Shown piece by piece: positions 6,831 through 37,581 of a DNA stretch of 64,000 nucleotides (positions within the stretch are counted from its first letter, which is position 1; each line of letters begins with the position of its first letter). Position numbers and translations under genes: made by a program. This DNA comes from Shigella phage JK55. Under the pieces are notes generated by a model. That model made no database searches, was not told the origin of the DNA, and was given only the letters and a program-made list of their open reading frames with translations. Location: sequence record MK962758; one strand, 5' to 3'.

Positions 6831-6906
6831 GCTCCATTACTCCAATTGGCAGAGAGGCCAGACTTAAAATCTGTGTTATGTATCGGTTCGAATCCGATAT
6901 GGAGTA
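6831..6906 (+). tRNA. tRNA with anticodon TAA (Leu by anticodon; short variable arm)
   Basis: acceptor gctccat/atggagt, anticodon stem caga/tctg, loop cttaaaa, T-arm atcgg-ttcgaat-ccgat, discriminator A. Confidence 0.6.
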
Positions 6907-6914
6907 CCAAATTT

Positions 6915-6987
6915 AGCGGTATAGCATAACTGGCAATGCAGCAGTCTCTGAAGCTGTCTTATTAAGGTTCAAATCCTTATGCCGCTG
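6915..6987 (+). tRNA. tRNA-Gln (CTG)
   Basis: acceptor agcggta/tgccgct, anticodon loop ctctgaa, T-arm taagg-ttcaaat-cctta. Confidence 0.7.
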
Positions 6988-7021
6988 CCACTTCTAAGGG
7001 TTCTTACGAGAGTCCTTAAAT

Positions 7022-7094
7022 GTGGCCTTATCATAAATGGTAATGACCCATGCTGTGAACATGGTCTATACGGGTTCAAATCCCGTAGGTCACC
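7022..7094 (+). tRNA. tRNA-His (GTG)
   Basis: acceptor gtggcct/aggtcac, anticodon stem ccatg/catgg, loop ctgtgaa, T-arm acggg-ttcaaat-cccgt. Confidence 0.75.
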
Positions 7095-7102
7095 CCAATT
7101 TA

Positions 7103-7177
7103 TAGTCCAAGTAGCTTATATGGTTAAAGCGCGTGTCTGAAAAACATGAGAAGAGGGTTCGAATCCCACTGGACTAC
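7103..7177 (+). tRNA. tRNA-Phe (GAA)
   Basis: perfect acceptor tagtcca/tggacta, anticodon loop ctgaaaa, T-loop ttcgaat. Confidence 0.75.
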
Positions 7178-7195
7178 CAATTTCAAAGGTGCTTA

Positions 7196-7930
7196 ATGAA
7201 AGAGATGACAGAACAAGGTAAGGAGATTTTTAATCTCTTAAAAACCGGTAAAGGGTTTTCTAACCCACTTATTACTGGTGCAGCAGTTCTCGGTGGAACC
7301 GTAGCTGCTTCTACATCACTTGTAAGCTCTATTAGTTCTGTAACAGACCCTACAATGCAGGAGAAACTTGTTGCTGCTGGACTTACAACAGTCCTTCTAA
7401 ACAGCTTTACAACAAGCCTTACAAGCACTACAGCAACTACTAAAACTCTGACAGACTACGGTCAAAAGTCTATTGATGAGTTTTCATCACGTATGCAGGT
7501 AGCAAAGGGGTATTCCAATGTTATGGGTGCAGCAGGAGAGCAAGTTGGTTGTACACCATTCAGTGGTATCATGGGTGTTGCTACAGAGTATGGTCAAAAA
7601 GCTATTAACATGATGAACAGTACACTAGATAGTGTTAATGGTGTGTTAAGTGACTTACAAGATGCTATTGATAAGGGTCTTGATACTGTTTCTGATTTAG
7701 CTAATCAGGCTGTTAGTAAGATTAATGAAGGTATTTCAAAGATTACAGCTTATGCAGATGAAGTTGTGCAGATGATTGAAGAAGAAGCTTCCCTTATTGC
7801 AGAGTACCTTAAAACGAATATCAATGGGTTCTTAGCAGGTATCTTACCAGACTGGTTTGATGATGCCTGTAAAACTGGTGTGATTGACACTATTGCAACA
7901 CCAGAAATGAAGAGCGCATTACAGAAATAA
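7196..7930 (+). CDS. hypothetical protein embedded in the tRNA array (Ser/Thr-rich N-terminal half, helical C-terminal half)
   Basis: ORF-track start 7133 lies in the tRNA-Phe anticodon loop; ATG at 7196 follows tRNA-Phe and an aaaggtg RBS. Confidence 0.55.
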   Translation: MKEMTEQGKEIFNLLKTGKGFSNPLITGAAVLGGTVAASTSLVSSISSVTDPTMQEKLVAAGLTTVLLNSFTTSLTSTTATTKTLTDYGQKSIDEFSSRMQVAKGYSNVMGAAGEQVGCTPFSGIMGVATEYGQKAINMMNSTLDSVNGVLSDLQDAIDKGLDTVSDLANQAVSKINEGISKITAYADEVVQMIEEEASLIAEYLKTNINGFLAGILPDWFDDACKTGVIDTIATPEMKSALQK

Positions 7931-7931
7931 T

Positions 7932-8021
7932 GGAAGATTAACCCTAAAAGGTAAGGGAGCAGTTTGCTAAACTGCCAGTAGCTGAGAAATCGGTGTACCA
8001 GTTCAAGTCTGGTATCTTCCT
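7932..8021 (+). tRNA. tRNA-Ser (GCT), type II
   Basis: 90 nt, perfect acceptor ggaagat/atcttcc, anticodon stem gcagt/actgc, loop ttgctaa, long variable arm, T-arm accag-ttcaagt-ctggt. Confidence 0.75.
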
Positions 8022-8028
8022 CCAATTT

Positions 8029-8101
8029 GAATCCGTGACAGAAATGGATATGTGCCTGTCTGCAAAACAGGTTTATAAGGGTTCGAGTCCCTTCGGATTC
8101 T
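8029..8101 (+). tRNA. tRNA-Cys (GCA)
   Basis: perfect acceptor gaatccg/cggattc, anticodon stem cctgt/acagg, loop ctgcaaa, T-arm aaggg-ttcgagt-ccctt. Confidence 0.8.
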
Positions 8102-8141
8102 CCAAGTTATTTTACTCTCTCTCAATTAAAATAATAATAAT

Positions 8142-19809: not shown

Positions 19810-27810
<8,001 letters not shown>

Positions 27811-34671: not shown

Positions 34672-35001
34672 CTAGTCTGCCAACCTTAAATTGAAATTAA
34701 CACCAAATTTTTCACATACTTCCAACATATACTCAAGGGAAACATTACCAGTGAGGTGGATTATGTTGGATACACGAGCCTGAGAGATACCACAAATTTT
34801 AGCAACTTGCTCTTGAGAAAGACCTCTGGATTTAATCTCTCTCTTAAAACGATGTGCAACGAAGTCTCTCATTTCGTCTACATCCATTGGACAAATATAA
34901 CTCTCCATTTCAGCCTCTCTATCAGCCTCCCAATCATCTTGTGGAGCATAAGGGTCAAAAACTTCATTCATCTTTCTTCTTCCGTTTGCGTGAAGTGTCA
35001 A
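34672..35001 (-). CDS. XRE-family helix-turn-helix regulator
   Basis: C-terminal HTH LSQEQVAKICGISQARVSNIIH. Confidence 0.6.
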   Translation of the reverse strand: MTLHANGRRKMNEVFDPYAPQDDWEADREAEMESYICPMDVDEMRDFVAHRFKREIKSRGLSQEQVAKICGISQARVSNIIHLTGNVSLEYMLEVCEKFGVNFNLRLAD

Positions 35002-35177: not shown

Positions 35178-35561
35178 TCAAATACCTGTGCAGCTTCTGT
35201 TTTCTAAGAAATACTCAACACCATACATAGCTTTTTGCATCAAATCTTCTTTAAACTGGATACGATGATTAAGCATAGCCTGTACATCAATATCATCATG
35301 GTGCTTCTCTTTGATATTTGCAGATTGCAGGAAATACTCTGCAAGAACACGATACTGATAGTCAGTTACCTTATCAGTCATCTCTGTTAAAGACTCTTCA
35401 GAGATTGGTTTAAGTAGCTCACCATTAGCCAGAGCAACACCTTTTACAATCTGACAAGTGTCTTCTGAAACACCTGATAAGTCAACATTTGGAAGTTCTG
35501 TTGCATTGACTGGTAAATTTATTGCCATAACCATTGCAGCAGCTAATAAAATCTTTTTCAT
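35178..35561 (-). CDS. secreted protein with Sec signal peptide
   Basis: MKKILLAAAMVMAINLPVNA followed by TE; RBS gagg upstream. Confidence 0.6.
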   Translation of the reverse strand: MKKILLAAAMVMAINLPVNATELPNVDLSGVSEDTCQIVKGVALANGELLKPISEESLTEMTDKVTDYQYRVLAEYFLQSANIKEKHHDDIDVQAMLNHRIQFKEDLMQKAMYGVEYFLENRSCTGI

Positions 35562-35745
35562 AATGACCTCAAAGTTATATTAAATTTTGTATTACATTGA
35601 GTATAAAAATAAGCTATAACACCTGACTTGTCAACAGATTTTATAGCTTATTTGGCAGATTTTTTATAAGGCTACTGCCATCCTTCCATACCAAACCCTA
35701 CCGAACAGAACCATGCTTTGCCATACTGGACAACACCTGACCAGA

Positions 35746-35783
35746 CATCACTTAAAAACCCTTTCAAAGACTCTTAAGTGATG
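35746..35783. repeat. hairpin repeat R1a (10-bp stem catcacttaa/ttaagtgatg)
   Basis: near-identical copy R1b at 36030..36069. Confidence 0.6.
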
Positions 35784-35784
35784 T

Positions 35785-35823
35785 AATCGAATTTTAATGT
35801 AGCTCCGATTAACTACCCATACC
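35785..35823. repeat. hairpin repeat R2a (stem aatcg/cgatt, loop attttaatgtagct)
   Basis: copy R2b at 35943..35981 keeps the loop and tail but changes both stem arms compensatorily. Confidence 0.6.
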
Positions 35824-35826
35824 TTG

Positions 35827-35880
35827 CATTACTTCACCAAACCGTACATTACTTCACCAAACCATACATTACCAGACCAT
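35827..35880. repeat. tandem direct repeats of 20-mer cattacttcaccaaacc(g/a)ta, about 2.5 copies
   Basis: units at 35827-35846 and 35847-35866 plus a degenerate third. Confidence 0.6.
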
Positions 35881-35942
35881 GCCACACCTGTCCAAACTCA
35901 ACCTCATTAAAAGACCCTGTTTAAAGACCTTTTAAAAAGGTA

Positions 35943-35981
35943 AGTCTCATTTTAATGTAGCTGAGACTAACTACCCATACC
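35943..35981. repeat. hairpin repeat R2b (stem agtctc/gagact)
   Basis: see R2a. Confidence 0.6.
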
Positions 35982-36029
35982 AAACAGCACCGCACTATGC
36001 CTTACCCCACCTCACCGAGCCTCGCCCCA

Positions 36030-36069
36030 CATCACTTAAAAAACCCTTTTCAAAGACTCTTAAGTGATG
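36030..36069. repeat. hairpin repeat R1b
   Basis: see R1a. Confidence 0.6.
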
Positions 36070-36283
36070 TTGGTGAGTACCCGTTGGTTTATGCTGCTCA
36101 GTATACTCACCAAATTTTCTATGTCAACAACTTTTTATAAAAAGTTCTGATAGCTATATGTGTCACGAAACAAAAGATTGTAAACAAGACACCCATTGCA
36201 AAAGATGTGTCCAAAAGCTTACTTGCAACATATGACAATACAAAGACAACCAGTATAAACATAATGACTGTACTGAACATAGT

Positions 36284-37387
36284 TTACTCATAATCCCTAA
36301 TAACTAGCCCAACAGGAAACTGTAAAGAACCCTTACGAGTCATCTTCTGGAACTGAACCGTTAAAGGTTTCCCGATAAACTCTTCAGGATGCTCAGCAAG
36401 ATACTGTTTCTTCTCATGAGTAGTCTTCCATGAGACATCTACAAAGACGTTAGGAAGAGTCTCTACAACGAACTTACCGTGACCACGTTTATCGGTCTTG
36501 ACACCAGTCACTTTAAACTCTTCAGTGTGCATCTTCTTGTGCTTAATCAAGAAGTATGAACGGTGACAACACTCATAGAAGGAGTCTTCAGAGATTGAAC
36601 GGTACATTGCACCTTCAAACTTAGCTTCAACCCACTTATCATGAGCTTCATCAAACTCTTCCCAAGAATTTACACGACGAGATTTAACAGGGACAACTTT
36701 ACAGCCGTCTCTAAAGTCATTCAATGGTGAAGTCTCAATAATATCTCTACGCTCAGGCCACGTTTTAGTACTGTCACAGATATCATACCAGTAGAACTTA
36801 AGTAAGTGTCTGTCAGGATTGTCTTCATTTTTAATCATGGAGACAATATCTTCTAAGTCCCACCCATGAGCATAAATCTCTCCATCAAATTCATCAACAT
36901 CTTTGTGGAGCCTTAACATTGCCATAATGTCAGGTATTAGTTCAGTAGGGATTTTGTAAACAGTATTCTCACGAGAATATGCTGTAAATACACTGCCAAT
37001 ACTTAAGTGTCTTGAAATTCTACAACGTACACCATCAAGTTTTGGTTGAGCATCAGCAGGGAACTTCAGATACTTTGCATGACTAACCTTTGCAGCATCA
37101 TGAGCAAGTTGTACACCTACTTTCTCAGTATTCTTTGCAGACTCTTTTGTGTAAGCGTAGCCTTTACGGTCAACTTGCTTTTTATACTTAGCAGCAACTT
37201 CAAAGAGAGCTTGCTGTTCAGCGTTACGCTCATTCTTTTTACCGATGTTTTTCGGTTCTGCTGTGTACTCTTCAAACATCATCTTGCCATTTTCTTTACC
37301 ATAGGTTGTAATAACTTTGTCACCTACAGCAACGCATGACCAGACGTTGAAAGAGCCATCTTTATTTTGTTTGTATAGGATTGTCAT
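36284..37387 (-). CDS. ATP-dependent DNA ligase
   Basis: motif I PKLDGVRC, motif III FDGEIYAHG, motif IV FEGAMYRS, motif V FLIKHKK; RBS agagga before ATG at 37387. Confidence 0.75.
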   Translation of the reverse strand: MTILYKQNKDGSFNVWSCVAVGDKVITTYGKENGKMMFEEYTAEPKNIGKKNERNAEQQALFEVAAKYKKQVDRKGYAYTKESAKNTEKVGVQLAHDAAKVSHAKYLKFPADAQPKLDGVRCRISRHLSIGSVFTAYSRENTVYKIPTELIPDIMAMLRLHKDVDEFDGEIYAHGWDLEDIVSMIKNEDNPDRHLLKFYWYDICDSTKTWPERRDIIETSPLNDFRDGCKVVPVKSRRVNSWEEFDEAHDKWVEAKFEGAMYRSISEDSFYECCHRSYFLIKHKKMHTEEFKVTGVKTDKRGHGKFVVETLPNVFVDVSWKTTHEKKQYLAEHPEEFIGKPLTVQFQKMTRKGSLQFPVGLVIRDYE

Positions 37388-37389
37388 TT

Positions 37390-37581
37390 TTATTCCTCTG
37401 AGTGATACCAAGTATTGCAAGCATTACATGCGTAAAGCTCTAAGTCATTTTTATCTGGTTTATGAAAACAGTTTGCTCCGCAGTGGCAACGAAATGGCTT
37501 TCCACCAACTGTCAGGACGAAGGACTGAATCTTTCCATCAGGAGTCCGTACAGCATTTTTATGCTTATCTTCTTTGTTCAT
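37390..37581 (-). CDS. small Cys-rich protein
   Basis: 63 aa with CHCGANCFH and CNACN. Confidence 0.4.
   Translation of the reverse strand: MNKEDKHKNAVRTPDGKIQSFVLTVGGKPFRCHCGANCFHKPDKNDLELYACNACNTWYHSEE

Follow-up and report, generated by a model that had tools for sequence, protein, structure and literature searches.

In a 64,000-nucleotide stretch of the genome of Shigella phage JK55 (sequence record MK962758; hereafter, the window), positions 35562-36283 hold a repeat-rich locus that we identify, with a probability of about 0.9, as an array of three vrRNA genes—guide-RNA genes of a SUSP1-clade type II VIPR system—whose effector genes have been lost. The window is DNA of a Felix O1-like myovirus of the genus Felixounavirus, and the locus lies within a leftward gene block, with a DNA ligase gene (36284-37420) on one side and a gene for a 127-residue protein (35178-35561) on the other. 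The original prediction had offered two readings of this region, a candidate replication origin or packaging site and, alternatively, a regulatory RNA locus. The latter was right in kind, the three guide RNAs being homologous to the experimentally characterized vrRNAs of phage SUSP1.

VIPR systems were reported in 2026, and our account of them draws on two preprints. As described there, a VIPR system combines a small RAMP-fold protein of ~20 kDa, Vipr, with an accessory vap gene and vrRNAs, the latter defined by 9-16 YNNGG repeats and a conserved 3' tail that forms a pseudoknot in the SUSP1 clade (bioRxiv 10.64898/2026.04.26.720920, 25 June 2026). The NN dinucleotides pair with double-stranded DNA, one target base—usually the codon wobble position—being skipped per repeat, and transcription of the target is silenced (10.64898/2026.04.26.720920). 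Each repeat is bound by one Vipr protomer with the GGY buried, and the RAMP-fold protomers assemble into an open helical filament (10.64898/2026.04.26.720927). Small-RNA sequencing of SUSP1 revealed one array before and three after the vipr-vap1 genes; vrRNAs of ~100 nt co-purifying with Vipr are described for SUSP1 and P. fulva only, and the guides of the SUSP1 clade converge on an E. coli satellite phage. RNA-guided DNA recognition of this kind is proposed to be older than CRISPR (all from 10.64898/2026.04.26.720920).

The identification rests on the anatomy of the locus, which becomes legible on the minus strand. Printing that strand for the window and its relatives, with modules mapped in 29 related loci, revealed a shared grammar: the promoter Pup, an R1 hairpin and an array, followed by n units of tail, R1 and array, a last tail, a terminator-like hairpin containing the next promoter, and the 127-residue gene. 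The relatives fetched for this comparison belong to Felixounavirus or Suspvirus, and a 1-kb query around the locus matched 294 phage records, nearly all from Escherichia, Salmonella, Shigella, Citrobacter or Erwinia phages related to Felix O1. The shortest intergenic region among the related loci measures 273 nt and has a single array; the longest, at 2132 nt, has five arrays and a two-gene cassette. The window has three arrays of about 11, 17 and 11 NNGGY units, with hairpins of 40-42 nt between them, and the 'ccatacc boxes' and C/A-rich tracts of the original prediction, although present, are the complement of these unbroken 5-nt-periodic arrays. The strand skew noted with them is borne out as well, with 8 G against 29 C between 35680 and 35760 (GC skew -0.57).

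The periodicity is far stricter than the surrounding DNA would provide. When the observed first-G variants are allowed, the arrays contain 12, 14 and 13 consecutive pentamers, and elsewhere in the window no run exceeds five; shuffled sequence gives a mean of ~5 runs of at least four pentamers, much like the remainder of the real window. Over 808 pentamers from 66 distinct arrays in the 29 related loci, the third base is G in 80% and never C, the fourth is G in 94% and the fifth is T or C in 96%, with the first two near random. Moreover, the 5-nt register runs unbroken from the R1 hairpin to the next module in 64 of the 66 arrays. In the window itself, 24 of 37 pentamers (65%) carry a perfect GGY, the departures falling mostly at the first G. 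The window arrays thus show the tract that defines a vrRNA, about 9-16 pentamers with conserved GGY and hypervariable NN; vrRNA2, at ~17 repeats, is one over the reported range.

Each array is followed by a 36-nt tail, and the four sequence types of this tail all fit a single H-type pseudoknot. Pairing holds in 96.2% of cells across 24 distinct tails (at most 42% in slid controls), and compensatory double changes are seen in 9 of the 11 pairs. Covariation of this strength, together with tails 1 and 3 that are identical to SUSP1 tails (the former to SUSP1 vrRNA tails, the latter to that of the last SUSP1 vrRNA), gives the window RNAs the conserved, structured 3' end of a vrRNA. The R1 element likewise behaves as RNA. 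It comes in two types with different arms, and every one of its 46 variants folds into a hairpin of 17-19 bp when read as sense RNA. The stem includes G.U pairs, whose counterparts on the opposite strand would be A.C mismatches, and in 45 of the 46 the antisense fold is clearly the weaker. For copy 1, a sense stem of ~18 bp with G.U pairs reaches -16.9 kcal/mol against -10.1 for the antisense. This difference in stability argues that the folded molecule is the minus-strand transcript. In three related loci, one R1A copy has a ~22-nt insertion in its loop (TTTAAATTATATTCGATAGAGTATCTCATAGGG...; intergenic position ~1589-1650 in the sense direction), which shows that an enlarged loop is tolerated in the spacer hairpin.

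All repeat families listed in the original prediction (R1a, R2a, tandem 20-mers, a degenerate R1, R2b and R1b) are where it placed them and in the order given, but they are not independent, since one unit—R1 hairpin, array and R2-type tail—recurs three times. The R1 hairpins at 35745-35784 and 36029-36070 are 93% identical, with the degenerate copy at 35901-35941, and in the R2 elements (35785-35825 and 35942-35981) the loop is conserved and the stems differ yet remain complementary. The tandem 20-mers occupy ~35826-35885. The R1 and R2 core motifs have no further copies in the 64-kb window; the only other partial matches are due to chance and fall inside a tail-fibre gene.

Comparison with the reference phage points in the same direction. 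The SUSP1 locus lies between the ligase gene and a homologue of the 127-residue gene, with one array before and three after genes of 195 and 146 codons, which, by order and size, appear to be vipr and vap1. The cassette proteins of phage VpaE1 share 97% and 99% identity with their two SUSP1 counterparts, and the 195-residue cassette protein of the relatives fits the Vipr family profile (E = 7e-86 for VpaE1, our control). Window and SUSP1 share the site, the promoter, the R1 hairpins, two tail types and the (NNGGY)n design, and ligase, promoter, arrays, 127-residue gene, 70-residue gene and helix-turn-helix (HTH) regulator follow in equal order. The predicted target class is also the same, an E. 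coli satellite with a Felix O1-like baseplate gene. They differ in that the window lacks vipr (195 residues) and vap1 (146 residues) and in that the SUSP1 guides are split, one upstream and three downstream; with the two genes missing, the three window guides are contiguous. Furthermore, the R2a tail variant of the window (stem AATCG/CGATT) does not occur in SUSP1.

By homology to SUSP1, leftward transcription would start from the sigma70-type promoter at 36127-36100, and the precursor would be cut at or near the three R1 hairpins to release RNAs of ~85-115 nt, each predicted to consist of an (NNGGY)n tract and the 36-nt H-type pseudoknot tail. The promoter is conserved in 29 of 29 related loci and is also found upstream of vrRNA1 in SUSP1. 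Taken together with the hairpins and the identical tails, it suggests that the window vrRNAs may be expressed as ~100-nt RNAs of the Vipr-bound kind.

The NN code of two of the three guides can be read as natural targets. To locate the satellite we relied on homology: a chromosomal gene annotated 'phage baseplate protein' occurs in 474 of 5426 complete E. coli genomes, and four copies of the element were fetched (L152-L155). One of them (L155, strain SCU-387) is the satellite cited in the discovery preprint and encodes WP_096972663 and WP_096972664, the satellite proteins that this preprint names (10.64898/2026.04.26.720920). Guides were scored by the NNx rule, with one target base skipped per repeat, and significance was taken from 1000 shuffles; guides of relatives served as positive control and scored 88-100% on the same satellite, including a perfect 22/22 for a guide of phage UAB_Phi87. 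Under this rule, vrRNA2 matches the satellite HTH gene in frame at 27 of 34 positions (79%; L152 8844-8893 and L153 4859-4908), a score that none of the 1000 shuffles reached. Its 3' 11 dinucleotides match at 21 of 22 positions, with the skipped bases at codon wobble positions. Similarly, vrRNA3 matches L155 5446-5477 at 20 of 22 positions (91%; 0/1000 shuffles), antisense to the gene at 5197..5751 and again with wobble positions skipped. Even the tandem 20-mers are accounted for: in the NN code they read TT-GA-AA-AC / TT-GA-AA-AA and mirror the stretch TTA GAT AAA ACA / TTA GAT AAT AAT (LDKT/LDNN) of the target gene. The codes of vrRNA2 and vrRNA3 therefore specify, in codon register, genes of an E. 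coli satellite that parasitizes these phages. No guide has a self-target within the window, and blastn recovered no match to the array region in any of the 5426 E. coli genomes.

The satellite itself spans ~11 kb—methylase, HTH gene, tape measure, baseplate and serine recombinase—and is integrated in the DUF72 (yecE) gene or near dinB; its carriers include strains SCU-387 and MARGA_3. Its baseplate gene is 90-97% identical in DNA to window positions 22043-22600 (~560 nt, the start of the open reading frame 22022-22819 that follows the tape-measure gene), which suggests recent gene exchange between helper phage and satellite.

Although the guides are present, the effector is not. No open reading frame lies between the window arrays, and neither vipr nor vap1, the protein genes of a complete type II system, was found in the window: tblastn over the whole 64 kb gave a best E of 0.25 (1.0 for Vap1), and a profile of 118 Vipr homologues gave a best E of 0.84 against 560 window open reading frames. 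The vipr-vap1 cassette sits inside the same locus in SUSP1, wV8, VpaE1, tootiki and garuso. The last two are the closest relatives of the window (96.6-97.6% identical); both carry the cassette, and the vrRNA1 array of the window is identical to theirs. Window and garuso are 98.2% identical over the stretch that starts at the ligase stop and closes with the final base of R1 copy 2 (type B); beyond it they diverge. As homology with the closest vipr-carrying relative ends exactly at an R1 hairpin, the cassette was probably removed or exchanged through recombination of one R1 repeat with another.

The guide-only state is not peculiar to this phage and is found in roughly half of the related genomes. 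Some ~230 phage records hold the array region, and Vipr occurs in 130 records, 118 of them Ounavirinae at 90% identity or more, in essentially one copy per record (131 places). Sorted by the first word of the organism name, 17 of 75 Salmonella and 77 of 115 Escherichia records have it. The complete genome of UAB_Phi87 (87,603 bp), whose guide gives the perfect satellite match, has two arrays at 58.1-58.3 kb and neither Vipr nor Vap1 anywhere (profile best E = 1.1). Felix O1 and many Salmonella phages (eight loci in our set) present a minimal form of ~275 nt, with the promoter, one R1, one tail and a single array of 8-11 pentamers.

Several observations weigh against our identification. What we say of promoter, processing sites and RNA ends is carried over from SUSP1, and the VIPR work itself is a pair of 2026 preprints that precede peer review. 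Guide vrRNA1 has no identifiable target: its best match in the four satellites, 16/22, is reached by 289 of 1000 shuffles, and the search found no exact match in IMG/VR and no match in any fetched locus. Two exact 20-base matches do occur in metagenome contigs, within unrelated-looking open reading frames, and we judge this to be about the number expected by chance in a collection that large, its size being an estimate. At 79%, vrRNA2 falls just below the 80% criterion given in the preprint, and its 5' third is mismatched; a query with a guide-derived pseudo-target recovered no satellite variant that fits this third better than L152 and L153. Perfect GGY is less frequent in the window than in vipr-carrying loci (65% against 78%), which could reflect early decay. 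Finally, the window covers 64 kb of a ~87-kb genome, which leaves some room for a vipr gene elsewhere.

This last point defines one rival, a complete and working VIPR system with its vipr gene in the ~23 kb outside the window. The window is only about three quarters of a Felixounavirus genome (records run to 84-90 kb), neither arrays nor tails are damaged, and satellite genes continue to be matched by two of the guides. Yet Vipr occurs essentially once per record and lies between the ligase and 127-residue genes in every relative examined, the complete UAB_Phi87 genome has arrays and no Vipr or Vap1, and of array-bearing records there are ~230, against only ~118 Ounavirinae records with Vipr. 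We regard this reading as very improbable. The replication origin, in which the 20-mers would be iterons for an initiator or the primase-helicase and the hairpins would flank an unwinding element, draws on the repeats and hairpins in a long intergenic region near replication genes; in principle, R-loops might also form on a G-rich non-template strand downstream of a strong promoter. We give it almost no credence. The 20-mers are private to this phage, appearing in no relative, and their NN positions match a repeated codon stretch of the satellite base for base, whereas phages that are otherwise more than 90% identical carry one to five arrays of unrelated sequence in a region of 273-2132 nt. 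Array number and sequence are thus free and only the GGY periodicity is kept—the opposite of an initiator-binding site. The inflections of cumulative GC skew, at ~32 and ~42 kb, coincide with reversals of transcription, and there is none at 36 kb. An iteron origin would be marked by conserved repeats shared among related replicons, beside an AT-rich unwinding element and a skew switch; here, neither the sequence nor the number of arrays is conserved among relatives, and the locus has no skew switch. The same elements in SUSP1 are, according to the preprint, expressed as discrete ~100-nt RNAs that co-purify with Vipr. The packaging-site variant of the original prediction fails on position. Direct terminal repeats of 608 bp were mapped at the genome ends of UAB_Phi87 (PMC4837284), the genus packages from such ends, and they lie ~30 kb from the locus, which in UAB_Phi87 is at 57-58 kb of 87.6 kb.

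A recombination hotspot of promoter/terminator cassettes devoid of RNA function, after the manner of the PeSL elements of T4, would explain why some loci have a two-gene cassette between repeated modules and others do not, why garuso homology breaks at an R1 hairpin, and why one annotator has labelled R1 a terminator and others have marked a 'repeat_region' or 'DR_4'. It offers no reason, though, for a strict GGY-every-5 register with free NN over 66 arrays, a covarying pseudoknot would not be kept under it, and the codon-register matches to satellite genes would be left unexplained. Recombination does take place at R1, as a by-product rather than as what the locus is for; as a full account of the locus, we consider the hotspot very improbable. 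Other candidates were set aside more directly. A CRISPR array has identical repeats of 24-48 nt with unique spacers; here, the conserved units (tail plus R1, ~80 nt) are of several sequence types, and the variable parts, 42-92 nt, are pentamer-periodic. ToxI-like type III antitoxins (~36-nt repeats beside a ToxN/AbiQ gene) differ in unit length and structure, no ToxN-like gene was found, and the 195-residue protein belongs to the Vipr family. A TRAP-like RNA-binding array follows a similar logic but is a different system. Rho loading (a rut site) on the antisense RNA explains neither the invariant Y nor the strict register, and an R-loop or G-quadruplex-primed origin would require GG, not Y. 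Chi sites (GCTGGTGG) cannot be embedded in the arrays, as pentamer position 3 is never C. Decoys for BREX or EcoP1 sites, clusters of primase recognition sites, and anti-Shine-Dalgarno or tRNA-CCA sponges conflict with the randomness of the NN positions.

Granted that these are vrRNA genes whose effector has been lost, the question is whether orphan guides still function. Perfect GGY makes up 77.7% of 597 pentamers in vipr-carrying loci, 72.7% of 176 in effector-less multi-array loci (p = 0.19 against the former) and 61.3% of 75 in the single-array class that includes Felix O1, Meda, IME338 and JN01 (p = 0.004). Erosion is limited to the first G, the second G and the Y remaining at or above about 95% in every class, and tails and R1 are nearly invariant. 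Neutral decay would be expected to put about 60% of the changes in an array at GGY positions and to cost it the second G and the Y as well. In the window, the 5' third of vrRNA2 combines degenerate repeats with mismatch to the target. This mixed pattern fits recent orphaning with slow decay; continued use, with Vipr supplied in trans, is less likely. The window guides are probably still transcribed but unable to act alone; they may be recently orphaned relics, or they may be usable only with Vipr from a co-infecting vipr-carrying relative. A blastn search with vipr and vap1 against the 5426 E. coli genomes found no match, and a source in trans would consequently have to be a co-infecting phage.

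A bolder version of the second option holds that guide-only genomes are maintained and are not debris, the RNAs of their transcribed vrRNA genes loading onto the Vipr of a co-infecting vipr-carrying relative. We consider this unlikely. The guide-only state extends to about half of the Felix O1-like phages, including UAB_Phi87, for which the entire genome was examined, and apparently Felix O1 itself. If true, trans-loaded guides would either give a free share in the defence against satellites or act as an RNA 'anti-VIPR' that redirects or titrates the effector of a rival, and an exchange of guide RNAs in trans among viruses that compete would be seen for the first time.

The features of the locus are collected in Table 1. 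The '720-bp non-coding region' of the original prediction has to be shortened: because 36119-36280 (165 nt) is a conserved open reading frame of 53 residues, the truly non-coding part is 35562-36118. That reading frame sits between the ligase gene and the vrRNA promoter, and SUSP1 and four further relatives differ in sequence there, with no match to its start. The leader hairpin would presumably be removed and be absent from the mature RNA. The loop of the terminator-like hairpin holds the -35 box (35629-35634) of a putative promoter of the 127-residue gene (TTGACA-17-TATTTT); a terminator scan of the region detected none. Three genes downstream of the array, a gene for a Cro/C1-type HTH protein of 109 residues (PF01381, E = 6e-10; 34672-35001, minus strand) is kept in all relatives, whether or not they have vipr. 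The 'tRNA array' mentioned in the original prediction comprises 25 tRNA genes at 3271-8104, all on the plus strand, as is typical of the genus.

Table 1. Features of the vrRNA locus of phage JK55, listed from the ligase side (coordinates in the window)
Feature	Position	Strand	Remarks
Open reading frame of 53 residues	36119-36280	-	Hydrophobic, conserved; PHROGs match phrog_22006; MFSTVIMFILVVFVL...
Promoter Pup, sigma70-type	36100..36127	-	TTGACA-16 nt-TATACT, 11/12; presumed start of vrRNA precursor, activity predicted
Leader hairpin (TTGGTGAGTA...TACTCACCAA)	36070..36113	-	Inverted repeat; sense fold -15.6 kcal/mol; overlaps -10 box
R1 spacer hairpin, copy 1, type A	36029..36070	-	Directly 5' of vrRNA1 tract; presumed processing signal
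vrRNA1	35943..36028	-	Predicted mature 86 nt; ~11 NNGGY repeats 35977-36028 plus pseudoknot tail 35943-35978 (2-nt overlap with tract)
R1 spacer hairpin, copy 2, type B	35901..35941	-	'Degenerate R1' of the original prediction; inverted repeat and fold
vrRNA2	35785..35900	-	Predicted 116 nt; ~17 repeats 35819-35900 including tandem 20-mers, plus pseudoknot tail 35785-35820
R1 spacer hairpin, copy 3, type A	35745..35784	-	Sense RNA -16.8 kcal/mol
vrRNA3	35654..35744	-	Predicted 91 nt; 11 repeats 35690-35744 plus H3-type pseudoknot tail 35654-35689
Terminator-like 47-nt hairpin, then T-run	35607..35653	-	Inverted repeat; fold -17.8 kcal/mol; putative function
5' untranslated region and ribosome-binding site of the 127-residue gene (35178-35561)	35562..35606	-	Outside the RNA array

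General-purpose collections did not recover the system. Rfam at permissive thresholds returned only sub-threshold chance matches, and its release 15 contains no vrRNA family; Pfam and PADLOC gave no match for the cassette proteins of the relatives, and PHROGs only families of unknown function. A scan of IMG/VR with the DNA pattern (GGTNN)x7 yielded at least 120 contigs, many of them from unrelated viruses with long multi-array regions, and these loci, picked by DNA pattern only, allow the identification to be checked independently. Among the matches listed, a Vipr-family open reading frame lies in the fetched stretch of 34 of 52 loci with diverse arrays, as against 3 of 68 with simple repeats, and it adjoins the arrays in all four loci whose coordinates were compared. 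The remaining 18 diverse-array loci have no Vipr-family open reading frame in the fetched stretch and may be truncated loci, carriers of other Vipr types or further orphans. One listed locus packs 16 arrays into 1.1 kb, another has 13 arrays, and a third has one run of 42 pentamers. In four loci, arrays end in ...GGC with a 1-nt overlap with the next array (CAGGT...), an arrangement that fits the 'staggered arrays' described in the preprint.

Public annotations of the locus in related phages reflect its repeats in various ways—'DR_4', 'repeat_region' or, for the R1 hairpin, a TransTermHP 'terminator'—in records EU877232 (wV8), MN850564, MN850647, MN850566, MN850637 and MZ726791. In the warpig record, base 1 falls within a vrRNA, probably through an assembly break at the repeats. 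Additionally, part of GU169904.1, deposited as 'Staphylococcus phage SA1' (147 kb), is 93% identical to this Felix O1-like region, a similarity that takes in the flanks of the vipr locus; the record looks chimeric or contaminated.

As vrRNAs are a published kind of element, here at the locus orthologous to that of the reference phage, the finding is not new in kind. The effector-less, guide-only state, however, is not mentioned in the passages of the two VIPR preprints used here or under the terms searched in the discovery preprint; the discovery pipeline, as described there, began from the Vipr protein, which places effector-less arrays outside its reach. That guide genes of the best-studied VIPR clade persist in the absence of the effector raises the question of whether orphan guides are relics, shared goods or decoys in phage-phage-satellite conflict. 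In practical terms, the annotation of a therapeutically used phage genus is corrected—its 'repeat regions', 'DR_4' and predicted terminator being parts of vrRNA genes—and the R1 hairpins are flagged as recombination points for gain and loss of the vipr-vap1 cassette.

Among known systems, three invite comparison. Iteron origins, such as those of lambda and of plasmids, have repeats conserved in sequence, and the PeSL repeats of T4 flank variable gene cassettes and promote their exchange. The locus resembles both in its tandem or dispersed short repeats and hairpins in an intergenic region, but both lack the 5-nt GGY register, the covarying pseudoknot and any matches, in codon register, to a second element. 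Closer in logic is the TRAP site of the Bacillus trp leader, in which GAG/UAG triplets recur every 5 nt with free 2-nt spacers and each repeat is read by one subunit of an oligomeric protein. A conserved triplet every 5 nt, free 2-nt spacers and one subunit per repeat are common to both; in the vrRNAs, however, the triplet is GGY and not GAG/UAG, the spacers rather than the triplets carry the information, and Vipr is reported as an open helical filament. Finally, orphan or mini CRISPR arrays and solitary repeat units occur in viruses that have no cognate effector genes. Like them, the JK55 locus consists of virus-borne guide genes lacking an effector, which might use or titrate the effector of another genome in the same cell. 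It differs in replacing repeat-spacer units with a noncontiguous pentamer code and in having Vipr as its partner, the only plausible source of which would here be a co-infecting sister phage.

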